DNA of 64,000 nucleotides from Candidatus Freyarchaeum deiterrae (GCA_037305845.1 CP147778.1:2400001-2464000), one strand, 5' to 3'. Shown: positions 34,236 to 59,005, counted from the stretch's first letter. Notes: a model not told the origin generated them from the letters alone. Translations and numbers: made by a program.

Positions 34236-34827
34236 TTATTCGAATTTGAGCATATAGCTTCTTCTATCTCCAAACTTTTTGTCAATATCGTCAAGTGTTC
34301 GTCTCAATGAAAAGATCTGCTGGTAAGCATTATCAAATTTACTCGATTCGAGTTCATCTTTAAGAGACTTTATTTCGCCTTGAAAAGTTTGGATATCATC
34401 TAAAATCGATGAATCGAATTCATACATTCTGTCAAGTTCTGGTTCACGAATTTTTACTGAGTCAAAAAAACCACCATAACCATAGTCAGCGTGGTTTATT
34501 CTCTCAGCGACCCTGTCTACGAGCGCCATCAATCTATCCATCTGCTCCCAAGTATTATTGACTTTATAATCCACAAGCATCTCCTGTACAAGATTAAGGT
34601 CACTTTTAGAATCACTGAACTGCTTGAACATGTAGTTCCGTAAAGCTTTATCCGCCTCTCTACGTATTTCCTTTGCCTTGTATCCATGTTGGCCGAGCAG
34701 AAGTAACTCTTACTGCTCAGTAACCAGGGATTACAAAGGCAACTTTCTCCAATAGGCTTCTGTTGGACTGTTCTCTTACTTCGCCTTTAATCTTCTCTGC
34801 TGTTGTTTTCTCTTTCTTACTAAACAT
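34236..34827 (-). CDS. Conserved helical hypothetical protein, two exons (34827-34720 and 34688-34236), 186 aa after splicing
   Basis: Spliced product MFSKKEK..LLEKVAFVIPGY/HGYKAKEIRREADKALRNY..ADYGYGGFFD.VKI.E.ELDRMYEFD; exon lengths 108 and 453 nt are both multiples of 3. Confidence 0.8.
34689..34719 (-). other. Predicted 31-nt BHB-type mRNA intron
   Basis: Helix GGUU/GGCC, bulges ACU and AAC, intron stem GAGCAG/CUGCUC, exon stem AUCC-U/A-GGAU. Confidence 0.75.
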
Positions 34828-34943
34828 TTTAACAACCCCATAATCGTTGCCGTACACATAAACTTCATACATCATGCTCTTAAAAAGATTTCATTACGAG
34901 CAAGAATAATAGAAATGCTCTTAAAAGATTTACTATGGATTAG

Positions 34944-36344
34944 CAAGAAAGCCCTAGTCCCTTTAGGGTGGGGGATGAATTGCGGGAGTTTAAATACCGA
35001 AAAAGGAGGAAAAAGGGGGAGTGAAAAGGGTATGCGGATAAACTGGGGTTTGAAGCCTACCCGCATCGGACTCGTTATGAATGAGGGAGAGTTGCGCATT
35101 TGAGAAGGACTAACACCTTCCGGCTGGTTCCAGCAAAGGAGCAGAAGCAGAGACTTTTCAGTTTAGCCGACAACTGCTCCAAAATGTACAACGAGATAAA
35201 CCATAAACGCAGACAATCATTCTTCTCAGGCAGATTCGACTGGAACACCGACGAACAATACCACAAATACAAGGGGTTAGTCGGCTCCGCCACCGCCCAG
35301 CAAATCACACAAAAGAACAACGAAGCCTGGAAATCATACTGGGCACTCCTAAAGAAGTGGAAAAAGGGAAAGGTGGAGAAGAAACCCAAACCTCCGAGAT
35401 ACTGGAAGGATCGCGAGACTGGAAAAAGACCCCTTAGAATCCTGGTAAGGTGCGACAGCTACCATCTGGAAGAAAAAGCCCTCAAACTCCCTTTCGGACT
35501 AAAAACGCAGTGGAGGGGCAGAAACAGGTGGAAAGGCGGTAAACAGGGCAGACTCGAAATAACCTATGACGAACTCTCGGAGAAATGGTACGCCTACATG
35601 CCAGTAGAGATCAAACCTCCTCTACACCAGCAACAGCAGCAGCTGAAAGGAAAAGAAAAGGAGGCGTACGTGGATCTGGGAGTGAAAGTCCCCATAATGG
35701 CGAGTATAGATTGGGAAGTCTTCGGCTACCGGGCGAATCCCATGCTCTCGGACTGGTGGTACTGGACACACAGAATAGCGGAACACCAGTCAATCCTGAA
35801 AGATGTAAACAATCGGTCAACCTCAAAGCTGTTAAAATCCTACCATAGGATGAGGCAGAGAAGATTCAGGAACAGTGTCAACGTGATGGTGAGGGACTTC
35901 GTTGAAAAGTGCTGGAACAGGGGAGTCTCGGAGATAGTCTGCGGAGATTTGAGAGACATAAGAAGCAGCGCCAACTTCTCAAGGAGAAGCAACTCCATGA
36001 TTCACAACTTCTGGTCGGTAGGATACATAGTAAGGAGGATAGAAGAAGTAGCAGAGGAGTACGGGATAAAAATAACTAGAGTTGATGAGAAAGGAACATC
36101 ATCAGAATGTCCGAGGTGCGGCTCAAAAAGAATCGTTAGAAGCAAAAGAATGTTCAGGTGCCGGGACTGCGGACTGGAAGCACACCGAGACGCCGTAGGC
36201 TGCGTAAACATAGGGCTTGCTCACCAACAAAAAGAAAAAGAAAAGGATGCGGAAGCCGTTAACAGGGCGGTGACACGCCCCACACTTCTAACAATAACTG
36301 CAGAAGTGTATAACTCCCTACCTTTCAAGGAGGGGAGTATGTCA
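34944..36344 (+). mobile_element. IS200/IS605-family (IS1341-like, tnpB-only) element
   Basis: Left-end hairpin region AAAGCCCTAGTCCCTTTAGGGTGGGG; right end CTCCCTACCTTTCAAGGAGGGGAGTATGTCA; no tnpA; ends approximate to a few nt. Confidence 0.8.
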
Positions 36345-36356
36345 GTAATCAGGTAA
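35100..36356 (+). CDS. tnpB: RNA-guided endonuclease TnpB
   Basis: RTNTFRLVP, YVDLG (RuvC-I), IVCGDL, VDEKGTSSECPRCG..FRC.DCG..AHRDAVGCVNI (zinc finger, RuvC-III). Confidence 0.92.
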   Translation: MRRTNTFRLVPAKEQKQRLFSLADNCSKMYNEINHKRRQSFFSGRFDWNTDEQYHKYKGLVGSATAQQITQKNNEAWKSYWALLKKWKKGKVEKKPKPPRYWKDRETGKRPLRILVRCDSYHLEEKALKLPFGLKTQWRGRNRWKGGKQGRLEITYDELSEKWYAYMPVEIKPPLHQQQQQLKGKEKEAYVDLGVKVPIMASIDWEVFGYRANPMLSDWWYWTHRIAEHQSILKDVNNRSTSKLLKSYHRMRQRRFRNSVNVMVRDFVEKCWNRGVSEIVCGDLRDIRSSANFSRRSNSMIHNFWSVGYIVRRIEEVAEEYGIKITRVDEKGTSSECPRCGSKRIVRSKRMFRCRDCGLEAHRDAVGCVNIGLAHQQKEKEKDAEAVNRAVTRPTLLTITAEVYNSLPFKEGSMSVIR

Positions 36357-36611
36357 ACCCCACACTTAAATCTTCAAAATTAACATGAATTAACAGAAAT
36401 TTCCTATTGTACAAAAAAAACAAAATTAGGGAGATTAACTTTTTTTATAACTTCCCTATAAATTATAAATATTGTAATTAGAACAGGAAAAGTATTCCTT
36501 TGTGTAGGGAAATATTCAATAGTTTATACCCTATCTGTTAAAAAGGTAATTAAAAAGTTACAAGGGAGAACAAAGCACATGTTTTAATTCTGTGGCTTGG
36601 AGGTTATTTGA

Positions 36612-37748
36612 ATGATGGAGCAAATGGAACGAAAGGGGAAGAAATTAAAACCTCCCCCTAAGGGCAGATTAATAGTTTCCAATATGTCTGGTGTTGAACT
36701 ACTAATTGCGTTTGAAGTTTTATCCAAAATGCGAGACCAAGGTAAGATCACTGATACGTTAATATTTGTTTCCCATAGTAAAGAATCATTAAGTTTGGGA
36801 AAATACGAAGACCTAGATGATATTCATTATAAGGCGGTGAAAAGAGACGGGGTGCTGGTAGGGCGAAGGGAGAGTGGGGCTGGCACTTACTATGCACCTA
36901 AAGGCCAAATCGCGGCTGTCCTAGTGACAACCACGGATGTGTTTCCAAACTTGGACGAAGCTGAGAGGATTTGGGCTGAAGAAATCATTCTTGAACTCTT
37001 CATAAGGGTGGGTGTTCTGGATGCTTATTACGATCATCCGGGTGATATTAAAAAGGAAGAAAAGAAGTTGGGTGGGAGCACCTCAATGATTTCGGGAAGA
37101 GGAATTACGGTGGGAGCGTTCATTAACCGGCTTACACCCAACGTCAAGTTTTTCACAGAATATCTCGTATATCCTGAGGAAAAGCTCAAGGACGAAATAC
37201 TGCGCGACGTAACCATGTACGCGGGCAGTATGGAAGAAGATGCACCCCAAACGCCAAGCGAGGATGAATTAAAGAAACTCCTACTAGGTATTGTGAACCA
37301 AAAATTGGGCATGGATTTTGAACCCGGGGATTTCACTAAAGAAGAAAAAGAAATGATAGCTAAAGACTTCAAAAAACTTACCTCGGAAGACTCGGTAACC
37401 AGCATCTCTAAGAGCAGATGGTATGCCAAGCTACCACATGACTGGAACGCGGCGACTTTCAGTTACAAAGCAGAAAGAATAGTAACTGCAAGCGTAGCAA
37501 TCGACAAAAGTAAAAAAATCAAAGATGTTCTTATAACAGGTGACTTTTTACTCTCACCCCCAAACGATTTAGAAAAAGTAACAAACGCACTGAAAGAAAT
37601 ATCAGCAGAAAACAAAAAAGCCATAACCAACTCAATAGTTGAAGCTTTTCAAAATAACAGCACAGACTATTCAGGCTTTACTATCGAGGAATTCGTTAAA
37701 ACGGTAACAGAAGCGGCAAACCTCGCCTTAGAACAATCATCAAAATAA
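36612..37748 (+). CDS. Lipoate-protein ligase A-like protein (divergent paralog)
   Basis: RRESGAGTYY, DI....KKLGG, C-terminal I.DVLITGDF domain. Confidence 0.8.
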   Translation: MMEQMERKGKKLKPPPKGRLIVSNMSGVELLIAFEVLSKMRDQGKITDTLIFVSHSKESLSLGKYEDLDDIHYKAVKRDGVLVGRRESGAGTYYAPKGQIAAVLVTTTDVFPNLDEAERIWAEEIILELFIRVGVLDAYYDHPGDIKKEEKKLGGSTSMISGRGITVGAFINRLTPNVKFFTEYLVYPEEKLKDEILRDVTMYAGSMEEDAPQTPSEDELKKLLLGIVNQKLGMDFEPGDFTKEEKEMIAKDFKKLTSEDSVTSISKSRWYAKLPHDWNAATFSYKAERIVTASVAIDKSKKIKDVLITGDFLLSPPNDLEKVTNALKEISAENKKAITNSIVEAFQNNSTDYSGFTIEEFVKTVTEAANLALEQSSK

Positions 37749-38049
37749 CAACACAAAATCAATTTCAATTTTACGGAAGGGACCCATCAACCCATACGCA
37801 GAAGGGCTCTTCAAATTAAGTTTTCATAACCCAAAGAAAAATGTTGAAAGACTAACATTACAAAGCTTGGTTTAAATATTAACATAAAAAACAACTCTCA
37901 AAAAAAAACAGATTTTTAGGTAATTAAAAAAAGAGGGGAAATTTTTGTATGATTTATTGGTTTTTTGAAGTACAGGTAGTTTTGGAATCGCCTCAGTAAT
38001 AGGCAACTTTTTCAAGACATTAGCAGTCAGGTCATTATGTCAAGCGGCT

Positions 38050-38322
38050 TTATCTGTTCATAATTAGATTAAATAAAACTAGTATTGCTCCGATAGCTAC
38101 GAGAAGTATTGCAACCATTATCAATGCGCTTCCAGTAACTGCAGTATACAGCATAAAGAATCCTATAGTTTCGCTAAAGACAAGCCAAATGAGAAAAGCG
38201 TTATTAGCAGCACCTGTTAATCCAGTCCAAGCAAAGAAAATTACTATAACCGCTATTATGAGAACAATAAAGGCAATCCATGAAAGCATAGTAGAAGTAC
38301 TCATACCTTTACGTTTAGGCAC
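38050..38322 (-). CDS. Small three-TM membrane protein
   Basis: Hydrophobic 90-aa ORF, GTG start after AGGAGG. Confidence 0.6.
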   Translation of the reverse strand: MPKRKGMSTSTMLSWIAFIVLIIAVIVIFFAWTGLTGAANNAFLIWLVFSETIGFFMLYTAVTGSALIMVAILLVAIGAILVLFNLIMNR

Positions 38323-38632
38323 GCCATTCTCCTCCTAATCTCCTGTTTATGAATGTTTTATTATAAGAAACTTATATTAAAATTTTACTTTGGGTTTGTA
38401 GTACATTAAGAAAGCTGTGGAAATTCATAAAAGGGGTTTTTTGAGCTTATCCCGTTCCATTCCTTTACTGGAGTCTTTTCAGCTATTAAAAATCGCTCGC
38501 AAAATACAAGTTTATAAGACTAACATTTCTGAGAATGAAAACATACAACTATTCACAAAAACCATTAGCGAAATTTAAATGCCTATACACTATTATAATT
38601 TCAATTAAACTGAAGATTAAAGGTGAACTCTG

Positions 38633-39265
38633 ATGGAGATTATGAATCAAATAGCAATGATTCCCGGGCAATCCTGGGCTTCAAACGTTTACGTGGTGGG
38701 CAAAGAAGATTTAGCACTAATTGATTCGGGTTTAAATGGTGATTTTGAAAGCTACATTATTCCACAAATTAAATCCCTGGGTCTTCAACCAAACAGAATT
38801 AATAAACTCGTAATCACCCATTTCCACCCTGACCACATAGGCGGCGCCCCCGAAGTCGTCAACTTCTGCGCACCCCAGATAATGGTTCACGAAATAGAAG
38901 CCCAATACATTGAGGAAAGAATGGGCCTTGAAGTTCAGGTTAAGCTTAAAGATGGAGATGTGATACAACTGGGAAACATGAATTTTCAAGTCATACATAC
39001 CCCTGGGCATTCCCCGGGAGCAATATGCTTGTACAATTCTGAAAACAAGGTGCTTTTCTCGGGAGACACCGTCTTTTCTTATGGAATAGGACGCACAGAT
39101 ATATCAGGCGGCGATACCAGTACCCTTAAAAAATCCATAAAAAAATTAACGGAATTAGATGTACAGATACTCTTACCGGGTCACGATGTTCCAGTTCTTG
39201 GAAACGCAAACGAAAACATAAAGATAGACTACTCATTTATTGAATCCATGATAGATGAGGAGTAA
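38633..39265 (+). CDS. Metallo-beta-lactamase fold hydrolase (glyoxalase II-like)
   Basis: THFHPDHIGG, HTPGHS, SGD, PGH. Confidence 0.9.
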   Translation: MEIMNQIAMIPGQSWASNVYVVGKEDLALIDSGLNGDFESYIIPQIKSLGLQPNRINKLVITHFHPDHIGGAPEVVNFCAPQIMVHEIEAQYIEERMGLEVQVKLKDGDVIQLGNMNFQVIHTPGHSPGAICLYNSENKVLFSGDTVFSYGIGRTDISGGDTSTLKKSIKKLTELDVQILLPGHDVPVLGNANENIKIDYSFIESMIDEE

Positions 39266-39489
39266 TAAGAGTATACTCTTTACTTCTAAGCTGAGCACCA
39301 AACAACTCATTCTACTTTACAAAATAGAGTAAACTTTTAATGGAACATAATTAGCTTATTTAAAAGCATCATCCGTTAAATTAAAATGCAAGCCAGCATA
39401 ATAACTTATCTTACAAAGTATTAAAGTGCAAATTCGAATTCGGAGTACATAAGCCTCAATGTTAACATTGAAAATAAGGTGCACTAATT

Positions 39490-40707
39490 ATGAAAAGACC
39501 ATTTGAAGAAATGTTTTCAAAAACGGCAAATAGGATTCAAGCCTCCATCATCCGTGAGCTTCTTAAATTGACCCAGAAACCAGAGATCATATCCTTCGCT
39601 GGAGGATTGCCCAATCCAGACGCTTTCCCCGTGGAGCAGATACAAGAAATCTGTCCCGATGTGATTAACAACTCAAACGCTCTCCAGTATGGAACCACTG
39701 AGGGCGTGGTGGAATTAAGGGAAGCGCTCCAAAAAAGAATGGCTACAAAAAACGTGAAATGCGAATTAGAAAATATCCAAATCACCTCCGGATCTCAACA
39801 GTCCCTGGACATCCTTGGGAGAATACTACTCGATCCAAATGATATAGTACTCACGACCTGCCCCACGTATCTGGGTGCAGTTCAGGCCTTCGGGTTCCAG
39901 GAGCCGAGATACGAACTCGTAGAGATGGACGAACACTCAGTAGTTGTAGAGGATTTAGAAGCACGCCTTGAAGATATACAAAAGAGAGGGGAAATTGAAA
40001 GACTAAAATTCTTCTACCTTACACCCACCTTCCATAATCCAGCAGGTGTAACCATACCCGAAAAACGTCGAAGAGAGATAATAGAGCTCTGCAACACTTA
40101 CGATGTGCTAGTTATAGAGGATGACCCTTACAGTGAGCTGAGATACCGGGGAAAAGATGAACCGCTGCTAAAATCATTAGACACCGAGGATCGCGTGGTC
40201 TACGTTAGCACCTTTTCCAAAATTCTTGTGCCCGGCTTCAGAACTGCTTGGATGGTCGGCCCAGTCGAACTAATTAAAAAAGTCGTGATGGCAAAACAAG
40301 CGGTAGACCTTTGCACAACCCCCTTCACTCAATACATTGCTGCAGAATATTTGAGCAGAGGATACGTGAACCAACACATTAAAAAAATCAAGGAAGTCTA
40401 CGGAAGAAAAATGCAGATAATGCTCAAATCTATGCAAGAATACTTCCCAGACGGAGCTCAGTACGCCGAACCAGACGGTGGAATGTTCGTCTGGGTGAGA
40501 TTACCCGAAGACATAAACACAATAGACCTGTTCCCCAAAGCAATTGAACAGAACGTCGCATACGTGGTAGGAACAGCATTTTACCCCAATGGAGGAGGAC
40601 TCAATACGATGCGACTGAACTTCACACATCCCTCGGATGAAAATGTCGAAGAAGGCATAAAAAGGCTGGGAAACGTCCTCCAAGAGGAGCTCGCAAAAAA
40701 CGCTTAA
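39490..40707 (+). CDS. PLP-dependent aminotransferase class I/II (LysN-like)
   Basis: SFAGGLP, GSQQSLD, FHNPAG, EDDPY, STFSKILVPGFR. Confidence 0.92.
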   Translation: MKRPFEEMFSKTANRIQASIIRELLKLTQKPEIISFAGGLPNPDAFPVEQIQEICPDVINNSNALQYGTTEGVVELREALQKRMATKNVKCELENIQITSGSQQSLDILGRILLDPNDIVLTTCPTYLGAVQAFGFQEPRYELVEMDEHSVVVEDLEARLEDIQKRGEIERLKFFYLTPTFHNPAGVTIPEKRRREIIELCNTYDVLVIEDDPYSELRYRGKDEPLLKSLDTEDRVVYVSTFSKILVPGFRTAWMVGPVELIKKVVMAKQAVDLCTTPFTQYIAAEYLSRGYVNQHIKKIKEVYGRKMQIMLKSMQEYFPDGAQYAEPDGGMFVWVRLPEDINTIDLFPKAIEQNVAYVVGTAFYPNGGGLNTMRLNFTHPSDENVEEGIKRLGNVLQEELAKNA

Positions 40708-40902
40708 TCCTACCTTCAACTCCTGATTCAAACATCTGATACTTCAAAAATAATAAAAAAAATGAAGGGTCGGACGCCCCTTATTTTTATCCTTTATTCT
40801 AATTCACAGCCCTTACAGTTCCTAGAAATATGTTGAGGGTTCCCAACTTCCAAGAATGGTTTTTGGGTAAACTATTTATCTGCTAAGGAGGAAACTTAAG
40901 AT

Positions 40903-41433
40903 ATGTCTTTAATTTATCCAGAGCAGTTTGAAACAGTCATAAAACTGAGAGACGGGAAGGAAGCACTAGTTAGACCGTTAAAACCAACTGTCGATAAAGA
41001 AAAACTATACGAAATGTACAGCACACTATCGAAGGACACAAACTACTACCGCTTCCTAAACTATCAACCCGTCACCAGATGGATCGTGGAACAATGGAGC
41101 GATGTAAACTACGACGACAAAATGACACTACTAGCCATAATAAAAGAAAACGGGAAAGAGAGAGTAATAGCTGATTCCCGATACTACCTGGATAAAACTA
41201 CCGGCGAAGCTGAAATAGCCATAGTGGTACACGACGACTACCAAGCCAAGGGAATAGGAACAAAACTACTCGCCTACACAATCGAAGTAGCCAAAAAAAT
41301 GGGAGTAAAAAAATTATACGCCTACTTGGACCCCACAAACAAAAGAATAATCCACGTAGTTAAAACCCTCGGCTTCACCGTTAAATGGGCTAACGACATA
41401 GGCGAGTACAGAGCCGATCTACCACTGCAATAA
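40903..41433 (+). CDS. GNAT acetyltransferase (Pat-like)
   Basis: LRDG..ALVRP, YYRF, AEIAIVVHDDYQAKGIG. Confidence 0.85.
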   Translation: MSLIYPEQFETVIKLRDGKEALVRPLKPTVDKEKLYEMYSTLSKDTNYYRFLNYQPVTRWIVEQWSDVNYDDKMTLLAIIKENGKERVIADSRYYLDKTTGEAEIAIVVHDDYQAKGIGTKLLAYTIEVAKKMGVKKLYAYLDPTNKRIIHVVKTLGFTVKWANDIGEYRADLPLQ

Positions 41434-41467
41434 ATAACCTCCCAAAAAGTTTGACGAGAGAATTTCA

Positions 41468-41836
41468 TCATTCGAACTCGTATTTTACGTCGGTCATAAG
41501 GTATACAACCACTATAATTCCGATTGTCAGAGGAATTATACCAACTATAATTAGAAGAAGGAATATACTACCGATTATCATAATTACTCCAAGTATCAAT
41601 GCGAGGATGCGTCCCCAATTCTTCATTCGGAACAAGCCTATAGCAGCAAAGACATACATTTCCGCCACAATAAATATAACAATAACCCCTATCTGATTAA
41701 AGATACTTTGAGGAGTAAAGTAAGATGTAAGGGCAGAATATAATACCCCCATGAATGTCCCAAGGCAACCTGCCAGCCCACCAATAATAAAGAAGACTAC
41801 AGTTAGTGCGGTGACACCACTCGGTCTATAAGACAC
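41468..41836 (-). CDS. Small membrane protein
   Basis: RPSGVT start, GLFRMKNWGR, four TM segments. Confidence 0.65.
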   Translation of the reverse strand: MSYRPSGVTALTVVFFIIGGLAGCLGTFMGVLYSALTSYFTPQSIFNQIGVIVIFIVAEMYVFAAIGLFRMKNWGRILALILGVIMIIGSIFLLLIIVGIIPLTIGIIVVVYLMTDVKYEFE

Positions 41837-41946
41837 ATATATCCCGCCCCATATTTTTTACTAAAAAATAAACATTAGTTTTAAATTATGTTATTTTTAA
41901 ATATTAAAACATTTGGAAAGCGGCACAATTTAGACCTTGGTTAAGG

Positions 41947-42627
41947 CTAGTCGGCTTCCTTCAGTAGCTTCTTTAACTTTTTGGAAGCGTCGTGGAGCAG
42001 GGGTTTGCCGTGCCCTGGCAACAATATATCGAAATCTAGCTTCGCTATCTTTCTCACTGATTTCCATGCTTTTTCTATATCAAGTGACATTGATTTTGCC
42101 GGGCCTTTCACGTTACCACTGCCGTCGGTTCTTAACACATCGCCCACAAAAACCGCCTTTCCCGGTTTGTATAGACATATGCTGCCCTCGGTGTGTCCCG
42201 GGCAGTGTATCACCTCTAATCCCCCTATCTTGTCTCCTTCCTTCAGGATAATGTCTGGCTTGACTTTTTGGAAGTTCATAAATTTCATAAATACTCCGAA
42301 GAATGCCCCTGCTAAGCCCTTCACTCTTTTCAGTTCTCTGTCCCCTGAAAGGCTCGGCGCATCGTCTTCATGTATGGCGACCTTTGCTCCCGTTATTCTC
42401 TTAAGCTCCGCCGCGCTTCCAGAGTGGTCGATATCAGAGTGAGTTAAAATTATTGCCTCAATTTTCAGCGAGTCTTTTCCTAGGGCTCTAATTTGGCTAG
42501 CAATCTTTTTTCCATTTCGGGTTAAGCCAGTGTCAATGACAAAACCTTTGCTACCGGCAATGTACAGATAACTGTTGGCTGCTCGTATTCCTTTAAAGCA
42601 ATAAATTCCATCTGCTATCTCCATCAC
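41947..42627 (-). CDS. Metallo-beta-lactamase fold hydrolase
   Basis: IDTG, THSDIDHSG, PGHTEG, GD, PGHG. Confidence 0.88.
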   Translation of the reverse strand: MMEIADGIYCFKGIRAANSYLYIAGSKGFVIDTGLTRNGKKIASQIRALGKDSLKIEAIILTHSDIDHSGSAAELKRITGAKVAIHEDDAPSLSGDRELKRVKGLAGAFFGVFMKFMNFQKVKPDIILKEGDKIGGLEVIHCPGHTEGSICLYKPGKAVFVGDVLRTDGSGNVKGPAKSMSLDIEKAWKSVRKIAKLDFDILLPGHGKPLLHDASKKLKKLLKEAD

Positions 42628-42935
42628 AATTCGCCTCTTTCCTTTTCAGCTAACTCACAACATCATCAGGAGAAAACTAATATAATATCATCTTCTAGAA
42701 GGGTGCTGCCAAAATCATTGGCAAGATTTTTTTAATAAATTTTTTGTTCTTTTTCAAGCAAGCAATTCTTTTAGTTAAATGAGTCATCACCACTTTTCAA
42801 ACTTGAACATTTTATTCGCTCACAGACACGATTTGAAATACTTTCCTCTAAATCTTTCTTGTGTTTCGTTTAATTTTCGAAATGATTTTTATATTATTTC
42901 TGCGTTGAATATTCATAAAGTTCGTAAAGCGAGGA

Positions 42936-43907
42936 GTGTTTGTTTTGAGAGCGTTGCTAATAGAAAATGGTGAGGTTAAAGTTGTTGAGGATTATCCTAA
43001 ACCCAAAGTTAAATCCGGCTGGGTTTTAATTAAACCCAGTGTTGTTGGGATTTGTAATACGGATTTGGAGCTCATTGAGGGATATATGAATTTTAGTGGA
43101 GTGCCGGGGCATGAATTCGTAGGCATTGTCGAGGAGGCGAGCGATAAGAAACTCTTGGGAAGACGCGTTGTGGGTGAAATAAACTTCGCTTGTGGTTCCT
43201 GTGAATATTGTAGAAAGGGACTGCAGAGGCATTGTCCTAACAGGAGTGTTTTGGGCATACAAAACGCGGACGGTGCTTTCGCCGATTATGTTACTCTACC
43301 ACGGGAGAATATTCACGTTCTTCCTGATAGTGTGAGTGATGATCAAGCCGTGTTTGTGGAGCCTCTCGCGGCCTCTCTGGAGATTCTGATGCAAACGCAC
43401 ATTAAACCAACCATGAAAGTATACGTTTTGGGCGATGGAAAACTCGGCTTGCTGACTGCACAGGTTCTCAGGCTAACTGGATGCGATTTGTTACTAGTGG
43501 GTAAACATGAGAACAAATTAGGAATAGTTGAAAGAATGGGTGTTAAGACCACCACTCAGGAAAACCTACCAGTTACCAAGGCAGATTTGGTGGTCGAGTG
43601 TACTGGTAACTCCAGTGGTTACAGTTTGGCAAAGAGGATGGTTAATCCCTCGGGAATAATAGTCGCGAAAAGTACGTACCATCAGAATCTGGAGTTGAAC
43701 TGGTCAGAAATCGTGGTAGATGAGATTACCATAATAGGTTCAAGGTGCGGACCATTTGACCCCGCGATAAGACTTCTGGAACAAAGACTCATAGACACCG
43801 ACTCCCTGATAACCGCTAGATACCCCTTCGAAGAAGTATTAAGAGCATTTGAACACGCGAAAGAACGCGAAGCAATAAAGATACTGGTCCAAATTGGGAA
43901 ACCGTGA
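42936..43907 (+). CDS. Zinc-dependent alcohol dehydrogenase (MDR family)
   Basis: GICNTD, GHEFVG, C.SC.YC......C, GDGKLG. Confidence 0.92.
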   Translation: MFVLRALLIENGEVKVVEDYPKPKVKSGWVLIKPSVVGICNTDLELIEGYMNFSGVPGHEFVGIVEEASDKKLLGRRVVGEINFACGSCEYCRKGLQRHCPNRSVLGIQNADGAFADYVTLPRENIHVLPDSVSDDQAVFVEPLAASLEILMQTHIKPTMKVYVLGDGKLGLLTAQVLRLTGCDLLLVGKHENKLGIVERMGVKTTTQENLPVTKADLVVECTGNSSGYSLAKRMVNPSGIIVAKSTYHQNLELNWSEIVVDEITIIGSRCGPFDPAIRLLEQRLIDTDSLITARYPFEEVLRAFEHAKEREAIKILVQIGKP

Positions 43908-46946: not shown

Positions 46947-47046
46947 CATATGCTCCCAGCATACAATTATTTATGGAGCAAAAATTAGAAAAAGAAACCT
47001 GTTTAGGTTTCTGATTTTTCTGTATCTGTTCTGTTTTGTTTTGGAA

Positions 47047-49843: not shown

Positions 49844-51319
49844 TTGAACCCTGCAGACGAAAATAAGGATGCAGAAATCGATAAGATGATAGAAGAAATT
49901 AACAAGGCAATACTCAAAAACCCCAAAACACAAAAAGAAACCATAGACAGCATACAAAGCACAATAAACCAAACAGAAAACATAGGGGTTGTGGGGCGGT
50001 GCCTCACCGATGTCGCTAATGCAAGCCCTGAGCTAGCGGAGAAACTAGCCAAAGCCATAAATTTGAAAACCCTAGCCAGAAAAATAGACCAAACAAAAGA
50101 TATACGGGATTTGGGGTGGTGCCTCATCGAGGTCGCTAGAGCAAGCCCTGACCTAGCGGAGAAACTGATACCGAGTGTAGCCAGAAAAATAGACCAAACA
50201 GAAGACATACATGCTGTGGGGGACTGCCTCAACAGTGTCGCTAAGGCAAGCTCTGAGCTAGCGGAGAAACTAGCCAAAGCCATAAATTTGGAAACCCTAG
50301 CCAAAAAAATAGACCAAACAGAAAACATAGATAATGTTTGGTTGTGCCTCCTCGGGGTCGCTGATGCAAGCCCTGAGATAGGGGAAAAACTAGCCAAAGC
50401 CATAAACACGGAAAACCTAGCCAGAAAAATAGACCAAACAGAAGACATACGAGCTGTGGGGTCGTGCCTCTTCGGGGTCGCTAGAGCAAGCCCTGAGCTA
50501 GCGGAGAAACTGATACCGAGTGTAGCCAGAAAAATAGACCAAACAGAAAACATAGAGGCTGTGGGGGAATGCTTCTTCGGGCTCGCTAGAGCAAGCTCTG
50601 AGATAGCGGAGAAACTAGCCAAAGCCATAAATTTGGAAACCCTAGCTAGAAAAATAGACCAAACAGAAGACATATTGGCTGTGGGGCGGTGCCTTCCCGA
50701 CATCGCTGGAGCAAGTCGTGAGACAGTGGAGGAACTAGCCAAAGCCATAAATTTGGAAACCCTAACCATAAAAATAGATCAAACAGAAGACACAGATCAT
50801 GTGGGGGTGTTCCTCTCCTTTGTCGCTGAAGCAAGCCCTGAGCTAGCGGAGAAACTGATACCGAGTGTAGCCAGAAAAATAGACCAAACAGAAGACATAC
50901 ATGCTGTGGGGTTATGCCTCGCCTTTGTCGCTGAAAAAATCACTGAGCTAGCAGAGAAACTGATACCGAGTGTAGCCAGAAAAATAGACCAAACAGAAGA
51001 CATACATGCTGTGGGGCGGTGCCTCACCGATGTCGCTAATGCAAGCCCTGAGCTAGCGGAGAAACTAGCCAAAGCCATAAATTTGGAAACCCTAGCTAGA
51101 AAAATAGACCAAACAGAAGATATACGGGATTTGGGGCGGTGTCTCATCGATGTCGCTTATGCAAGCCCTGAGCTAGCGGAGAAACTGATACCGAGTGTAG
51201 CCAGAAAAATAGACCAAACAGAAGACATAGAGGCTGTGGAGTGGTACCTCGCTGATGTCGCTAAAGCAAGCCCTGAAATAGGAGAAAAACTAGCCAAAGC
51301 CGTAACACGGAAACCCTAG
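49844..51319 (+). CDS. HEAT/ARM-like tandem-repeat protein (12 repeats of 35 or 40 aa)
   Basis: Consensus ARKIDQTEDIxxVGxCLxxVAxASPELAEKL(IPSV or AKAINLETL). Confidence 0.85.
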   Translation: MNPADENKDAEIDKMIEEINKAILKNPKTQKETIDSIQSTINQTENIGVVGRCLTDVANASPELAEKLAKAINLKTLARKIDQTKDIRDLGWCLIEVARASPDLAEKLIPSVARKIDQTEDIHAVGDCLNSVAKASSELAEKLAKAINLETLAKKIDQTENIDNVWLCLLGVADASPEIGEKLAKAINTENLARKIDQTEDIRAVGSCLFGVARASPELAEKLIPSVARKIDQTENIEAVGECFFGLARASSEIAEKLAKAINLETLARKIDQTEDILAVGRCLPDIAGASRETVEELAKAINLETLTIKIDQTEDTDHVGVFLSFVAEASPELAEKLIPSVARKIDQTEDIHAVGLCLAFVAEKITELAEKLIPSVARKIDQTEDIHAVGRCLTDVANASPELAEKLAKAINLETLARKIDQTEDIRDLGRCLIDVAYASPELAEKLIPSVARKIDQTEDIEAVEWYLADVAKASPEIGEKLAKAVTRKP

Positions 51320-51420
51320 CAAAAAACATAGATCAAACAGAAGACACATGGGCTGTTATACATTGTGTCTCACGTGTTGCTAGTGCGAGTCTTTTGGTTT
51401 GGGGGAAGCTAGTTAGCCTG
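49955..51420 (+). repeat. Tandem array of 105-bp and 120-bp units (12 plus one frameshifted)
   Basis: Near-identical AGCCAGAAAAATAGACCAAACAGAAGACATA and GCAAGCCCTGAGCTAGCGGAGAAACT blocks flanking variable codons. Confidence 0.9.
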
Positions 51421-51708
51421 AATAAACAGGGAAGGCACGACGAGAAAGAAGCACAAAACAGACGATTTTATAGCTTTAATGCGTCTCTCGGAAGTCTATC
51501 TTTTTCTCGGCGATTCTGATAGGAGTAAAGAGGCGGCTGAGAAAGCTTTAAATCAATAAAAACAAGCCAAAACAGAGAAAAAACACACAACAACTGAAAC
51601 CCAATAATCACATAAACAATAAGACCACACAAACAAAAAACCGTCAAACAAAAACTCAAAAAACAGAGAATCAAAATAAAAAGATAAAAAGAAAAGAAAG
51701 GAAAAACC

Positions 51709-52110
51709 CTACTCAGTCGTCATATCGACAACCCATAGCATAGCCTTCCGATCCGAAGTAGCGAGCTCGTAAGTAGTAGTCATCTCAAGAGCATCCTTAG
51801 GACAAGACTCAACACACTGCTCGCAAAATAAACAACTACCAATATCGCATACAGGCAGTTTGCCGGGTTTGTTTTTTAGTTCTGGGGGGTAGTTTTCGGG
51901 CCAGTCTGTCATGGTTATTGCCATTGAGGGGCAGTCTTTGGCGCATGTTCCGCATCCTACGCATCTTTTGAGGTATAGTGTGTGTCTTCCTCTTAGGTGT
52001 TCGTTTGGTGTTAGTTTTTGGAAGGGGTAGAATACTGTTGCTGGTTTTCTGGGTAGGTTTCTTAGTAGTTCGTTTTCCATTCTTCCTGGTCTGACCATGT
52101 TGTTTTTCAC
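51709..52110 (-). CDS. 2x[4Fe-4S] subunit (NuoI/EchF-like) of membrane-bound hydrogenase
   Basis: YPF, RGRH, CVGCGTCAKDCP, CLFCEQCVESCP. Confidence 0.9.
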   Translation of the reverse strand: MKNNMVRPGRMENELLRNLPRKPATVFYPFQKLTPNEHLRGRHTLYLKRCVGCGTCAKDCPSMAITMTDWPENYPPELKNKPGKLPVCDIGSCLFCEQCVESCPKDALEMTTTYELATSDRKAMLWVVDMTTE

Positions 52111-52120
52111 GCTCCTATTA

Positions 52121-53395
52121 TTATATTAGTACTAGTAGCCATAGCATTAGGTAGTAGCTTGCTTGCCATCCGAGTAGGTCGAAGTAGAATACTACTTCTA
52201 GTGCTATTATGTTTAGGAATGCTAGTGGGATTAGGTATTTCCATGAGCCTTTGACTACTTGGTCTATTCTGAATCTTGCGAATAGTGTTCTGAGGTTTGC
52301 TATTACGAATATTATTGCGAAGACTTTTACTAGGAACCATCCGGTGCCGATGAGGTAGCCCCAGGGGAATGCTCCCATTAGTCGGTCTAGTTGTGATAGT
52401 CCGATTTGGCTTCCTGGGCCCCAGGGTCCGCCTAGGAATAGTGCTGCTGCTAGTCCTGCGCCCCATACGTATTCGAGGTCGGCTGATAGTCGGAATATTG
52501 CTAGTTTTCTTCCGGATATTTCGGTTTGCCATCCGGCTACTATTTCTGTGTGGGCTTCTGGTATGTCGAAGGGTACTTTTTCCATTTCGGCCATTAGTGA
52601 AATTATGAATACTGCGAATGAAACGGGTGCTAGTAGTATGAATGGTATGCCTAAGGTTGATTGGAGTTGGGTGATGTTTGCTACTGTTAAAACCGAGAGA
52701 CCTGATGCTGGAATTACTGTTGATAGTGTTGCTAGTGCTGATGGGTAGTGTAGTCCTAGAGAGAGCATGATGTTGTTGACCTGTATTGGTCCGGAGTAGT
52801 AGTATCCTAATATGATTGCTGGGGTTATGGCTGATAATACGAAGGGTATTTCGTAGGCTATGAGTTGCATGCCGGCTCTGGCTGTTCCCACTTCGGCGAA
52901 CCTGTTGGTTGAGAACCAGCCGGTAAGGATTACTGTTAGGGCGAATATTGTGGAGAGGAACAATAGTGCTATGAGGTCTCCTTCGAAGCTTATTACGCCG
53001 CTGTTTGTGTATATTGGGATGAACATTAGCATGACTAGGCCTAGTGTCATTGCTATGATTGGGGTTGCGGCTAGGCTTCGTGCTTCCGCGCCGCTCTGTA
53101 CTACGTCTTCTTTGGCTAGTAGTTTGACGAGGTCGGCTACTGGTTGTAGTACTCCGTGGTATCCGGTGTGGAAGGGTCCAACCCGGTTCTGTAGTCGGGC
53201 GTAGAGTTTTCGGTCGTACCATTCCGCAAAGAGTGATACGCCTATTACGAATAGGATGCCTGGAAATATGATTATTTTAAAGAGATCTAGCAATGGGTTG
53301 CTCTGTTGCTGAAGTAGGTATTGAAAGGCTAGGTTGGGGTAGCCATATTTTATGTATAAGTAGAGTTGAATGTACAATTGTAAGTTAACGGCCAT
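52121..53395 (-). CDS. NuoH/EchB-like membrane subunit
   Basis: RKLYARLQNRVGP, QPVADLVKLLAKE, PFDIPEA.TEIVAG, RFRIDQ. Confidence 0.92.
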   Translation of the reverse strand: MAVNLQLYIQLYLYIKYGYPNLAFQYLLQQQSNPLLDLFKIIIFPGILFVIGVSLFAEWYDRKLYARLQNRVGPFHTGYHGVLQPVADLVKLLAKEDVVQSGAEARSLAATPIIAMTLGLVMLMFIPIYTNSGVISFEGDLIALLFLSTIFALTVILTGWFSTNRFAEVGTARAGMQLIAYEIPFVLSAITPAIILGYYYSGPIQVNNIMLSLGLHYPSALATLSTVIPASGLSVLTVANITQLQSTLGIPFILLAPVSFAVFIISLMAEMEKVPFDIPEAHTEIVAGWQTEISGRKLAIFRLSADLEYVWGAGLAAALFLGGPWGPGSQIGLSQLDRLMGAFPWGYLIGTGWFLVKVFAIIFVIANLRTLFARFRIDQVVKGSWKYLIPLAFLNIIALEVVFYFDLLGWQASYYLMLWLLVLI

Positions 53396-53398
53396 TTT

Positions 53399-54577
53399 TT
53401 ACCACCTTTTCTTTTCGTAAAATTCAATACCATATTTTCTTAGGCTTTCTATGTCCATTGTCCAAGTTTTTTCTTTTTCTGTGTTGACGAATGTTACTCG
53501 GTCGGTGCAGCTTAAGCACGGGTCTATGGCTGCGATGACTATTGGTACGTCTGCGATGTAGCCTCCCTTCAGCATATATAATACTGAGGGCCAGTTTGCG
53601 AGTGACGGTGTTCGTATTTTTACTCTTTCGGGTTTGTCTGATCCGTTAGCTTTGATGTAGTAGATGAGTTCACCACGGGGGGCCTCGTATCTGCTTACCA
53701 CTTCTCCCTCTGGTACACGCCTTTTTAGTTTGAGTCGGATGTCGTCCTTTGGGAGATGGTCTAGCATCCATTCTACCATGTTGCACGACTGTAGTGTTTC
53801 CAGAATGCGTACCGCTACTCTTCCGAACACATCGCAGGAGTCCCAGGTAATTACGTCGAAGGGTACTTCAGCGTAGGCGGCGTTTGGGTCGTCTTTGCGG
53901 CCGTCCATGTTGATTCCTGAGGCTCTTAGAGTGGGTCCTACTGCTCCCAGTTTTCGTCCCACTTCTGGTGGGAGTACTCCTACGCCTTGAGCTCTTTTCA
54001 GAATGGTGGGCTCGTTGACGCAGAGCTTGAGGTAATAGTTCATTCTTTCCTTCAAGTATTCCATGTCTTTCTTGATTGCTGGGATTTTATCCTTGCTTAT
54101 GTCTCTTCGGACTCCTCCAATCGTGTTCATGGCGTAGTTTACTCTGTTTCCCGAAATCAGTTCAAGATCGTTCATGACGATTTCACGGTCTCTCCAGGTG
54201 TAGTTGAAGAGGGTGTCGAATCCTATTTCATGTCCTGCTACACCGAGCCATAGCATGTGTGAGTGAATTCTCTCTAACTCGCATACAATGGTTCTTATGT
54301 AGAGCCCCCTTCGGGGCACTTCTTCGTCGAGTAACTCTTCCACTCCTTGGGTGAATGTTGTTGTGTGAGAGTGAGAACAAATACCGCAAACTCTCTCGAA
54401 GAAGTATATGTCTCGAACGTAGGGCCTTAATTCGCCTGATTTTTCCATTCCTCGGTGATTGTATCCTAACCTAATCTGGGCATCCACAACCTGTTCTCCA
54501 TCAACTTCAATGGTGAAGTTTACCGGTTCCTTCAGGGCTGGATGCTGAGGTCCTATTGGTATTTTAACGGTCGTCAT
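53399..54577 (-). CDS. Group 4 [NiFe]-hydrogenase large subunit (EchE/MbhL-like)
   Basis: GPQHP, ERVCGIC and DPCLSCTDR Ni-binding motifs, with a C-terminal extension. Confidence 0.93.
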   Translation of the reverse strand: MTTVKIPIGPQHPALKEPVNFTIEVDGEQVVDAQIRLGYNHRGMEKSGELRPYVRDIYFFERVCGICSHSHTTTFTQGVEELLDEEVPRRGLYIRTIVCELERIHSHMLWLGVAGHEIGFDTLFNYTWRDREIVMNDLELISGNRVNYAMNTIGGVRRDISKDKIPAIKKDMEYLKERMNYYLKLCVNEPTILKRAQGVGVLPPEVGRKLGAVGPTLRASGINMDGRKDDPNAAYAEVPFDVITWDSCDVFGRVAVRILETLQSCNMVEWMLDHLPKDDIRLKLKRRVPEGEVVSRYEAPRGELIYYIKANGSDKPERVKIRTPSLANWPSVLYMLKGGYIADVPIVIAAIDPCLSCTDRVTFVNTEKEKTWTMDIESLRKYGIEFYEKKRW

Positions 54578-54580
54578 TTT

Positions 54581-55093
54581 TTATTCAACTCCTTCTGGCA
54601 GCCAATCTTTGCGCAGAGGATACACTCCCTCTGGAAAGTCATCCGGCAGGATGAAGCGTTCCAGATTAGGATGATTCTCAAAAACTACTCCGAGAAGGTC
54701 GTGTATTTCCCTCTCGTAAAAAGTGGCTGCGGGTAGTATATCTACAATTGTTTCAATTTTGGGATTTTTCTTAGGAACTTCTGTTCTGACAGAGGGGTTT
54801 GTGCGGTATCCTTGATGCTTGTACAGGTGATATATGACTTCCAATGTTTCTCCCTTGTCAACGCCGGTTATTGTGGACAGGTGTTGTAAGTCCCAGTTGT
54901 CTTTCATCCACTGGATTACCTTTCTGTGGTCTCCGGGCTTTACTCTGATGAACATTCTTTTCGGTCTCGGAATCCATATCTCGACGGCTTTTCCGAACAC
55001 TTTTTCTAGCTCAGCCTTCATTTTTTCCTCCTCTTTTGCGGGAGGTTTTACTTTAGGCTTTGCTTCTTTCTTTTCTTCTCCTTCTTCTGACAT
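54581..55093 (-). CDS. NuoC/EchD-like subunit
   Basis: LSTITGVD, YEREIHDLLGV.F..HP, YPLRKD. Confidence 0.9.
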   Translation of the reverse strand: MSEEGEEKKEAKPKVKPPAKEEEKMKAELEKVFGKAVEIWIPRPKRMFIRVKPGDHRKVIQWMKDNWDLQHLSTITGVDKGETLEVIYHLYKHQGYRTNPSVRTEVPKKNPKIETIVDILPAATFYEREIHDLLGVVFENHPNLERFILPDDFPEGVYPLRKDWLPEGVE

Positions 55094-55098
55094 CTGTT

Positions 55099-55533
55099 TT
55101 ATCCTCCCTTTAGTTTTCCCAGTAGTTTTGCAACTGCGTCAATTATCGCTTCGGGTTTGGGAGGGCATCCGGGTACGTACATGTTAACTGGAATTATTTT
55201 GTCGTATCCTCCCTCGATGTTGTAGCATCCTTGGAAAACGCCTCCAGTTATGGCACAGTTTCCGACGGCGATGCAGAATTTTGGTTCCGCCATTTGCTCG
55301 TAGAGGCGTTTGAATCTGGGTGTCATCTGTTTGGTTATTGAGCCTGTGCCTACCATCACGTCTGCGTGTCTCGGTGAACCTACTAGGAGTATGCCGAAGC
55401 GTTCTATGTCGTATTTCGGCATTAGGGCGGCGAGAACTTCTATGTCGCAACCGTTGCATGCCCCAGTGTTCATGTGAAAAACCCAAGGGGATTTTACCCT
55501 TGACCAAGTTACAAGTCTATCTTTAAGTCCCAA
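55099..55533 (-). CDS. Hydrogenase small subunit (NuoB/EchC-like)
   Basis: GACNGCDIE, SPRHAD, GNCA, PGCPP. Confidence 0.93.
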   Translation of the reverse strand: MGLKDRLVTWSRVKSPWVFHMNTGACNGCDIEVLAALMPKYDIERFGILLVGSPRHADVMVGTGSITKQMTPRFKRLYEQMAEPKFCIAVGNCAITGGVFQGCYNIEGGYDKIIPVNMYVPGCPPKPEAIIDAVAKLLGKLKGG

Positions 55534-55550
55534 TTATTACACCACCTTAA

Positions 55551-55868
55551 CTATTTCCGGTATAAGACCAATACTGCTGCTATTGTAGCAAAGGCCACGA
55601 ATACTCCACCATAGAGTGGATTCGAGAAGGCAGAGGTGAATATCACAAAACCCGCCGTTTCAAGTATTGTGAAGAAAACCGCATAGTAGAACAATTGCAG
55701 TCTGAATTGGAATTTCTCTGCGGGGTATTTCTCTCCACAAGCGTAAGCCATCATTTTTTCCTTGCTTTTCTTTCCTTTAGGTGCCAAATATCTTGAGGAA
55801 GCGTATAACGCGCAGGCACCAATAAAACTGATTAATATTGCTAATCCAAATGTGGCAATATCGGGCAA
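55551..55868 (-). CDS. NuoA-like membrane subunit
   Basis: K...YACGE, FYYAVFFTILE. Confidence 0.8.
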   Translation of the reverse strand: MPDIATFGLAILISFIGACALYASSRYLAPKGKKSKEKMMAYACGEKYPAEKFQFRLQLFYYAVFFTILETAGFVIFTSAFSNPLYGGVFVAFATIAAVLVLYRK

Positions 55869-56205
55869 TGTCTGTTTGCACCTCCAACTCTAAAGTAATA
55901 GCGATTAGATACCTTTACCTATTTAAGTTTCACTCTTACAGATATTTTATCAGATTAAAAGGTTTTCCTCGGCTCTTTCCGTTTTTTTAAAGTTTTTCTT
56001 CACAGTTTTTTACGTTTTTCGGAATTCTTTTTCCTACGTTCCAGAATTCGAATATATTTTAAATAGGTTTGGCAAAAATTTTCCAATTGGATAATAATAG
56101 TTCATAAAAAACATTTTTTATTGGGAGTAAAAACGCAAGGTTTTTTTAAACGAAAGAATATTATATTCAAAATCACAGATATTTCTGTCTGATTAGGTGT
56201 TGGGT

Positions 56206-56649
56206 ATGGAGGTAACGTTTAAGTTAGAAGGTGAGAGCGTCACCGTAAAACTTCCTGAAAACTTGTACTATAACAATGATCACTGCTGGGTGAAGGCAGA
56301 AAACGGAAAAGCAAGAATCGGATTCGACGACTTCGGCCAAGCAACAGCTGGGAAAATCCTTTTCGCAAGACTTAAACCCGAGGGGAAGCCCATTGAGGTG
56401 GATAAGAGCTTCGGTTCAATAGAAACCGGAAAATGGGTAGGACCACTAAAAGCTCCAATCAGTGGCACTATACTAGAAGTCAATCCTGAACTAAAAAAGA
56501 AGCCCACCATTATCAACGAGGATCCCTATGGAAAAGGATGGTTAGTAGTTGTACAACCAACAAATCTAAAACCAGAATTATCCAAACTTGTCACCGGTGC
56601 CGCTATCAAAAGTTGGATAGACAAAGAAATAAAAGAAAGAATAAAATAA
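56206..56649 (+). CDS. gcvH: Glycine cleavage H-like lipoyl carrier protein
   Basis: H.WV, IGFDDFG, IETGKWVGPLKAPISG, NEDPYGKGW. Confidence 0.88.
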   Translation: MEVTFKLEGESVTVKLPENLYYNNDHCWVKAENGKARIGFDDFGQATAGKILFARLKPEGKPIEVDKSFGSIETGKWVGPLKAPISGTILEVNPELKKKPTIINEDPYGKGWLVVVQPTNLKPELSKLVTGAAIKSWIDKEIKERIK

Positions 56650-56683
56650 ACCAACATTTCACTCTTTTTTTAATTTTTGAGGC

Positions 56684-57781
56684 TTGAAAGAATTGGAAGA
56701 ATGGCGACTCTTAGACTTGGACGCCTTACCCGCAACAGACACTCAAACCATATACGAGGCTGTCGCATCAGCCAGAAGCAAGAACCTTGTTCCCGAAACT
56801 CTCATACTCTGCTACCCCAAAAGTCCGCTAGTTTGTATAGGATATCACCAAGATTTAGAGAAGGAAGTAGATTACTCTTTTTGCCAGTCTCAGAGAATAC
56901 CAGTGGTTCGGAGAATCCTGGGTGGTGGAGCAGTGTACCTAGACCAGGGGCAACTCTTCTACCAAGTAATTATTGATAAGAAAAACCCCAAAGTTCCACT
57001 ATCAATAAATGATTTCTTTCGGAAGCTTCTAGAAGCACCCACAAAAACCTATCAGGAACTGGGTATCCCCGCGGTTTACAAGCCAATCAATGACATCGAA
57101 GTAGGCGGTAGAAAAATCAGCGGTAACGGTGCCGGCACTCTGGAAAATGTTGTAAACATAATGACTGGTAACATCATAATGGACTTCAACTTTGAAATGA
57201 TGGTGAAAATCCTAAAGGTTCCGAGTGAAAAATTCAGGGATAAAGTGGCGAAAAGCCTAGAGGAGCGAATGACCACCATAAAAAAGGAACTGGGACATGA
57301 GGTCCCCCTAGAAAAAATCAAATCGTTGCTCATAAAAAACTACGAGGAAACTCTAGATATAAAACTGCGAAAAGGAATGCTCAACGATTGGGAAAAGAAA
57401 ACCATGAGAGGCCTGAAAAAGAAATACCAATCCCAAGAATGGTTAAACATGGTATTTTTGCGTCATCCGGACCTAGCACGAAAAGTAAAAATTTCGAGCA
57501 TCGCATACGTTTCCGAATCCGCCTACAAAGCACCCGGAGGCCTAATCAGGGTCACCCTGAGGATAGATGAGGACAAAATAAAAGAAATAATGCTCAGTGG
57601 AGATTTCTTCATATATCCCGAGGACAAATTAAGCGAGCTAGAAAAAAGACTTACTGGGGTTCCCACCGATATAAGCGAAATAAATCAAGTTATCCAAACC
57701 TTTTACAAGGAAGAAAAAATAGAAACTCCCGGGGTAACCGCGCAGGACTTTCTAACAGCAATACGCCAAGCAACGGAGTGA
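56684..57781 (+). CDS. lplA: Lipoate-protein ligase A
   Basis: VRRILGGGAVYLD, NDI...GRKISGNG, KAPGGLIRV, SGDFF. Confidence 0.92.
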   Translation: MKELEEWRLLDLDALPATDTQTIYEAVASARSKNLVPETLILCYPKSPLVCIGYHQDLEKEVDYSFCQSQRIPVVRRILGGGAVYLDQGQLFYQVIIDKKNPKVPLSINDFFRKLLEAPTKTYQELGIPAVYKPINDIEVGGRKISGNGAGTLENVVNIMTGNIIMDFNFEMMVKILKVPSEKFRDKVAKSLEERMTTIKKELGHEVPLEKIKSLLIKNYEETLDIKLRKGMLNDWEKKTMRGLKKKYQSQEWLNMVFLRHPDLARKVKISSIAYVSESAYKAPGGLIRVTLRIDEDKIKEIMLSGDFFIYPEDKLSELEKRLTGVPTDISEINQVIQTFYKEEKIETPGVTAQDFLTAIRQATE

Positions 57782-57949
57782 AAAGTCAAGTTTTCTTTTT
57801 GAAAAAGAATACTCATTACTAAGAACCGTTTTTGAATTTCTGTTCAAAAATCAGACACATACAGTTCATAATTTTTTTAAATTTTGGTAATCTTTATTAT
57901 ACAGCGTTATCCTAATTGAACACTCAACCAAAAGTGGAGGTGTAAACGG

Positions 57950-59005
57950 CTGGAGAAGTATAGGTTAACTAAGGCAGTAACTCTTCATGGATGATCATGT
58001 AAACTACCTCAAACTGAACTGAATAACCTTCTAGAAAATGTCGGAGTGAGAAGAGACCCCTCAGGAAGACTAATTGGAGGAATCGGGGAAGACGCCGCCG
58101 TGGTCAAGATTCGGGATGATCTGGTACTCATAGAAACTGTTGATTACATGACCCCGAACGTTGATGATCCCTATATCCAGGGCAAGATTGCTGCGGTAAA
58201 CGTTACGAACGATGTGTATAGTGTAAATCTACTTGATTTACATGCATAAGCAATAGGCGCAACCGATGTTGTGAGCTTCTTAGCGATACTCGGAGTTCCT
58301 GAAAATATGCCTATTAAAATAGCTGAGGGAATGCTGAAGGGAATAAACGATTTACTAAGCGAACTGGGCACTACAACCATCACCGGCGGTCACACCATAA
58401 TAAATCCCTGGCCCTTAGTCGGAGGAGTGGCTTCAGGAATAGCTCATCCAGACCAGATAGTAACCCACAAGAATGCTCGACCCAACGATGTGGTGCTGCT
58501 TACTAAACCGCTGGGTACTCAGCCAGCGATGGCTTGTTATAGAGGACTCCTAGATCCCAGCGTCGCAGAGCAAATACTGGGATTAATGTCCAGAAAGGCA
58601 GCAGAAGAAATTGTTCAAAAGGGGATTGACATTATGACTAGGACAAATAAGCCGGTGGCTGAGGCGATGTCAGCTGTGAAACCTCATGCCTCTACAGATG
58701 TCACCGGATTCGGACTTCTCGGGCACTCTCGAAATTTAGCAGGTGAAAGCAAGGTTAACATTGACATTCACACAATTCCCATAATCAAAGGCACTTTGGA
58801 GCTTTCGGATCTTTTCGGATACGGACTTCAGTCTGGTGAGTCAGCGGAAACCGCGGGTGGAATGATTCTAATTGTTTCAGAAGACCAGAAGGAAAGCTTG
58901 GAATCAGAGTTGGACAAAGGTTCTGTTAATCACTACGAAATAGGTACCGTGAGGAAGGGGTCTGGAAAAGTTGATACCAGCAAGGCGGAAATACTTGAAG
59001 TTTGA
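57950..59005 (+). CDS. selD: Selenophosphate synthetase: selenoprotein (UGA 57992-57994), two exons (57950-58219 and 58250-59005), CTG start, 341 aa
   Basis: YRLTK...HG-U-SCK, GEDAAV, TVDY.TP.VDDPY..GKIAA.N..NDVY/AIG, GGHT, TKPLGT, TDVTGFGLLGH, ETAGG. Confidence 0.92.
58220..58249 (+). other. Predicted 30-nt BHB/BHL-type mRNA intron in selD
   Basis: Helix GUGU/GCAU, bulges AUA and AAG, intron stem GUGUAAAUC/GAUUUACAU; contains an in-frame TAA. Confidence 0.8.

Follow-up and report, generated by a model that had tools for sequence, protein, structure and literature searches.

The question raised by a 64,000-nucleotide stretch of the Candidatus Freyarchaeum deiterrae genome (GCA_037305845.1 CP147778.1:2400001-2464000; hereafter the window) is whether two unrelated genes in it, each interrupted by a hairpin insert of about 30 nt with a premature stop, are broken or are repaired by splicing of their messages. 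The window covers positions 2400001-2464000 of a single-contig genome of 3,576,204 bases (coded G000), and positions given here are those of the window unless marked as genome positions. The host is an Asgard archaeon, as an original prediction made from this DNA had proposed, and database matches label the closest SelD homologs as Freyarchaeota/Jordarchaeaceae. It is highly probable that both inserts belong to a lineage-wide set of bulge-helix-bulge (BHB) introns in mRNA that are spliced constitutively by proteins, with EndA cutting and RtcB ligating.

The first insert (31 nt; 34689-34719, minus strand) interrupts a gene for a conserved hypothetical protein, here called gene 1, and was defined by sequence, relatives and fold. 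The second (30 nt; 58220-58249, plus strand) interrupts selD and was defined by sequence, relatives and covariation. Both are in phase 0 directly after a Tyr codon in a conserved motif, IPGY and NDVY respectively. Insert 1 starts with an in-frame TGA immediately after the Tyr codon and also shifts the frame, and insert 2 ends with an in-frame TAA. The two have no sequence in common and share one anatomy, in which exon and intron pair in a 4-bp central helix, each strand carries a 3-nt bulge and there is an inner hairpin; fold and comparison bear out what the original prediction had said of length, geometry, stops and position. In insert 1 the exon strand GGUU (34722-34725, minus) pairs with GGCC (34691-34694) between the bulges ACU and AAC, and in insert 2 the exon strand GUGU (58214-58217, plus) pairs with GCAU (58244-58247) between the bulges AUA and AAG. 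If both bulges are cut after their second base, exactly the insert is excised and each gene is left with a functional exon junction. In gene 1 this is IPGY-HGYKAKE, a PG[YF]xGY-type motif that is continuous in 126 of 148 homologs. In selD it is NDVY-AIGATD, which is continuous in about 100 of 108 homologs and joins positions 1-48 of PF00586 on exon 1 to positions 49-111 on exon 2. Fold z scores are -3.3 for insert 1, which also has an outer exon-exon helix, and -2.7 for the selD insert, and none of 20,000 random position/length pairs in G000 has a BHB score as high as that of the weaker of the two. A group I or II self-splicing intron was ruled out, as single hairpins of 30-31 nt stand against a ribozyme core of hundreds of bases, and an Rfam scan of 57800-59400 gave no group I or II match. 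A spliceosomal intron was ruled out as well, given that the ends are UG...AA and AG...AA and not GU...AG. On every feature testable here the inserts have the character of archaeal BHB introns, the predicted substrate of EndA.

A survey of sister genomes, which had been suggested as a check, supports the same assignment. The selD intron lies at the identical site in all 10 scorable Jordarchaeia/Freyarchaeia genomes (G000 and nine relatives, from two families), at lengths of 30-34 nt, and 14 selD loci in other Asgard genomes lack it. Across those 10 genomes its 12 predicted pairs are standard pairs in 120 of 120 cells, with compensatory change on both sides in seven of the eight inner pairs; slid registers gave 14-63%, and none of 500 shuffles was as good, a test that is inflated by relatedness. 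The gene-1 intron (27-31 nt, central helix kept) was found in G000, in a further genome (G002) and in four sister-family genomes, and is absent, exact to the base, from four of six congeners. Because it is found in both families, this pattern suggests that it may have been lost in those four congeners. A third example, the intron of cbf5 (genome 1483415-1483446, minus), splits the catalytic Asp codon after its first base. It is present in 11 of 11 genomes of the order, in three of three genomes of a further family (f13) and in one genome of another (f16), and is absent from 15 other Asgard loci. Its position in G000 is the one given for Crenarchaeota, and its presence in three Asgard families may stem from common descent or from several insertions at a favourable site. 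In the selD, gene-1 and cbf5 introns alike, structure is kept while sequence varies.

These comparisons bear directly on the simplest alternative, that the interrupted genes are pseudogenes, carry scars like those of miniature inverted-repeat transposable elements, or are products of assembly error. Both window genes do appear broken on DNA, and the genome is metagenome-derived. However, the same insert 1 is present in five independent assemblies, which excludes assembly error, and inserts at the same site with covariation across two families contradict the rest, as do exons that are 77-83% identical and still open. The inserts are also not repeated anywhere else in the genome, and they strike essential genes; not all of the broken genes can be pseudogenes, since tyrS, gatE, rps26e, rtcB and cbf5 are among them. 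This explanation is considered extremely improbable.

The original prediction held that many such introns would be hidden at broken genes throughout the genome, and at least 32 introns were found in 27 genes of G000, with up to three per gene; this census is a lower bound. A de novo scan for BHB structures (first bulge base fixed as A, minimum score 12, maximum length 45, AA at the end) returned 15 sites with true geometry compared with 0-5 for six decoy geometries, a comparison that is not fully independent because the bulge filter was learned from confirmed introns. The loose descriptor by itself gave weak enrichment (23 versus 7-25 decoy sites), and homology and the A-at-bulge filter were needed. 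In a motif-free census, proteins from samples of G021 (1.19/2.81 Mb), G006 (1.1/2.1 Mb) and G011 (0.1 Mb) were aligned to G000. It yielded 17 frame-breaking insertions, four of which were antisense or upstream-of-start artefacts without BHB. All 13 genuine sense-strand gene breaks have a BHB structure (nine automatically, four after a manual register check), compared with 1 of 344 stop-free in-frame indels, so that the enrichment at gene breaks proposed as a check was observed in both censuses. The total of 32 also counts hits of the scan and other leads that held up on rechecking. Homology supports 28 of the 32 introns: an uninterrupted homolog spans the junction in 21, a BHB structure lies at the same site in G006 in four (gatE, cbf5, pcm and one in queE), and Pfam position or a motif supports three (rps26e, tyrS and hypD). 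Host genes also include rtcB and porA; several host gene names come from motif recognition rather than a family search.

Several candidates were discarded along the way. Those at genome 3404245, 735531, 1170615, 465089, 1206130 and 1614234 were dropped for want of homology support, neither a kae1 intron nor a third RLP intron could be confirmed, and seeming frameshifts at genome 1.837-1.839 Mb resemble shadow open reading frames (ORFs) over rRNA. In a self-tblastn of every ORF, the output was dominated by antisense ORFs from repeat proteins. Single-base frame changes without an insert were seen at genome 2485092 (minus) and 1634541 (minus) in comparison with G006 homologs of 68-69% identity, and may be sequencing error, pseudogenes or programmed frameshifts. 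All 32 introns and most tRNA calls lie within genome 0.99-2.64 Mb, and none was confirmed in the other 1.9 Mb; this clustering may reflect the location of core genes or the reliance on homologs.

The introns of the census share no sequence and have no donor elsewhere in G000. Their median length is 30.5 nt (range 20-191). The longest belongs to ahcY (genome 1876203-1877066, minus), which has three introns of 56, 29 and 191 nt, the last a long hairpin far over the usual size. Phases 0, 1 and 2 are represented by 11, 17 and 4 introns. The Tyr context of the two window inserts does not hold up as a rule, because the codon before phase-0 introns is Asp in four cases, Glu in three, Tyr in three and Gln in one, and the other introns are in phase 1 or 2. 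With the first bulge base mostly A, this makes the Tyr context a by-product of the A rule at bulge position 1. The same figures bear on the idea that ribosomes hop over hairpins that are never cut. T4 gene 60 is an example of such translational bypass, and a stable hairpin whose stop lies at or close to the take-off point does resemble a bypass signal. However, take-off and landing codons do not match, a codon is split by 21 of the 32 inserts, and what is conserved is a staggered helix of exon and intron in which the bulges of the two strands begin with A (in 30/32 and 29/32), the shape of an EndA substrate. Bypass is thus a very improbable reading. Much the same applies to the proposal that the exons are made as two separate polypeptides, unspliced. 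Gene callers do place downstream starts for exon 2, and selD exon 2 has been deposited alone in public databases as a SelD of 232-250 aa, but the called starts vary among genomes and omit conserved residues, some exons have just 15-38 codons, and breaks fall inside catalytic or metal-binding motifs (the Cbf5 Asp, the CxxCxxC of HdrC and of a ferredoxin, the HypD CGTH and the YchF P-loop). Split proteins are accordingly given very little probability.

Splicing by proteins needs enzymes, and the genes for them, which the original prediction had asked about, are present. G000 encodes RtcB (genome 1.452 Mb) and two EndA paralogs (genome 1.921 Mb and 1.733 Mb), and two paralogs are likewise present in 10 of the 11 genomes of this order. 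One paralog has an extra loop that resembles the crenarchaeal specificity loop. It keeps the catalytic Tyr, His and Lys and is closest to the crenarchaeal structures 3p1z/3ajv, and the other paralog is without the His, from which an EndA of the two-subunit type is the predicted assembly. By analogy with crenarchaeal cbf5 (PMC2738675, PMC10485636), we infer that splicing occurs and that EndA and RtcB are its enzymes. In the proposed mechanism, the last exon bases of the pre-mRNA would form a 4-bp helix with the 3' end of the intron, flanked on either side by a 3-nt bulge; the two-subunit EndA would cut after base 2 of each bulge, and RtcB would join the exons and restore the frame, while an unspliced message would meet a stop within 0-17 codons. 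The same process by which nearly all tRNA genes of the class acquire introns would also strike protein genes, and inserts would persist where clean excision is possible, with gain and loss ongoing.

Whether such splicing also serves as a control is a separate matter. It could be a regulated checkpoint in which EndA/RtcB activity gates a set of genes, with feedback through rtcB and cbf5, in a manner like the unfolded protein response. In favor of this, rtcB itself is broken by an intron in its PDAHQG motif, several hosts act in RNA maturation (cbf5, rtcB, queE, gatE and tyrS), every intron of the census blocks translation, and all 12 introns whose length is a multiple of three hold a stop, although this enrichment is partly ascertainment. 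However, the genes that carry introns have mixed functions, and the sets of introns change readily between close relatives, as is also seen in the absence of the gene-1 intron from congeners. G006 has its own set, which differs from that of G000, with junction motifs fitting EF-2, IF2, a ribosomal protein, a small GTPase and others, and its rtcB is without an intron. Its small GTPase gene (G006:C1 ~996130-996280, plus) has two BHB introns of 44 and 30 nt near the P-loop. G021, probably a member of Atabeyarchaeia, has at least three BHB inserts in protein genes, including one of 54 nt (G021:C1 320516-320569, minus) and one of 35 nt near 980.3 kb. A checkpoint is unlikely. There is a similarly small chance that a regulatory gate acts over dozens of mRNAs in Freyarchaeia/Jordarchaeia, and more sparsely in Atabeyarchaeia, with a ligase that splices its own message; such a gate would be a precedent among archaea for the eukaryotic mRNA splicing that relies on a ligase. 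The original suggestion that EndA/RtcB-dependent mRNA splicing is general in this lineage agrees with the number of genes and the presence of the enzymes, but beyond the intron in rtcB no evidence for its possible regulatory side was found. Splicing is most likely constitutive housekeeping, and routine, non-regulatory splicing of the messages of multiple genes is considered very likely.

Some observations weigh against splicing of these messages. No spliced transcript was found in assembled collections or protein databases, and a JGI junction scan gave one match, which was unspliced, and no spliced selD in metagenomes. All close SelD, gene-1, PorA, Fbp and Alba database proteins are unspliced pieces, which may derive from DNA or from RNA. 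The selD insert lacks the outer exon helix and so fits a relaxed motif, and four of the 32 introns (in leuC, in a radical SAM gene and two in queE) were called on BHB and ORF joining only. Full-length PorA records of 392 aa were rejected as spliced products because the intron is read through from a false upstream start. In all 15 Fbp proteins of the class that were listed, the deposited sequence has a variable and incorrect C-terminus that is translated from the intron (L197:865-1956, plus).

The two window genes have further features of their own. Exon 1 of gene 1 (34720-34875, minus) and exon 2 (34236-34688, minus; 150 aa, beginning HGYKAKE) were assigned from sequence and homologs. The start may be an ATG at 34875/34872 or at 34827, the latter fitting intronless orthologs of 187-188 aa. 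The family is all-helical and widespread (1093 representatives), and a fold search with the product gave no significant match. An uninterrupted SPFH/Band-7 and double zinc-ribbon gene identified by domain search (33267-34214, minus) lies 3' of gene 1 and is probably co-transcribed with it. Directly upstream on the opposite strand is a TnpB gene of the IS200/IS605 family (35100-36356, plus), for which no tie to the intron was seen. In selD, exon 1 (57950-58219, plus) contains a conserved in-frame selenocysteine TGA (57992-57994) in the motif HG-U-SCK, and exon 2 (58250-59005, plus; 251 aa) was assigned from sequence and a domain search. There is no ATG; throughout the genus a CTG, the probable start, follows GGAGGTG at normal spacing (57936-57994), and the corresponding position is occupied by TTA or GTG in the sister family and in Atabeya-like genomes. 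The 3' untranslated region has a candidate eukaryote-like selenocysteine insertion sequence (SECIS) at 59015-59058 (plus; AUGA, stem, AAA, mini-stem, stem, GA), which is based on its fold, recurs in relatives and lies within a GCGGCA/UGCCGC stem in the genus; Rfam gave no SECIS match for it. The selD message apparently requires a CUG start, recoding of UGA and splicing all at once.

The lineage very probably splices many mRNAs by means of tRNA-type introns, and gain and loss among close relatives make the origin and spread of introns in protein genes without a spliceosome testable, as well as whether EndA architecture permits such introns. There is also a practical consequence, in that SelD, PorA, Fbp, Alba and other proteins of the class are deposited in truncated form, an error that can bias metabolic and phylogenomic studies of Asgard archaea.

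Among known systems, the closest is the cbf5 pre-mRNA intron of Crenarchaeota (Desulfurococcales and Sulfolobales; PMC2738675, reviewed in PMC10485636), which is likewise a short BHB intron without an ORF in coding sequence (16-44 nt) and is associated with a two-subunit EndA. However, one gene is affected there compared with at least 27 here, with up to three introns per gene and lineage-specific sets, and splicing was demonstrated on RNA there whereas the introns reported here are known from DNA alone. The BHB intron of HVO_1309 in Haloferax volcanii (PMC7714728, PMC10485636) also makes an mRNA a substrate of the splicing endonuclease, but it is a single case in a 5' untranslated region, with a homodimeric EndA. 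A 2023 review counted these two spliced archaeal mRNAs and expected more (PMC10485636). For the lineage itself, the report on the complete 3.58-Mbp Ca. Freyarchaeum deiterrae genome gives introns in 92-95% of tRNA genes (PMC11291895). That report and a preprint (bioRxiv 10.64898/2026.10.13.758758) describe non-canonical tRNA introns in Freyarchaeia and Atabeyarchaeia and agree with the data here in lineages, motif, repeated gains and two EndA paralogs. The difference is that term searches of both turned up tRNA introns only, with neither mRNA nor cbf5 occurring in the preprint, and the literature search on Asgard introns, with most subscription papers outside it, found tRNA introns only. The link to HAC1/XBP1 proposed in the original prediction is reduced to analogy. 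Both cases involve non-spliceosomal removal of a short, frame-changing intron, and animal XBP1 is ligated by RtcB (PMC5333776, PMC10630183). However, IRE1 rather than EndA/TSEN makes the cuts there, yeast HAC1 is joined by Rlg1/Trl1 and not by RtcB (PMC5333776), there is one regulated target, and each boundary has a consensus stem-loop whereas the boundaries here pair with each other. Yeast TSEN, for its part, cuts mRNAs for decay, not splicing (PMC10485636). The mechanism is therefore already known from crenarchaeal cbf5, and its scale and turnover are the new element relative to the literature searched.

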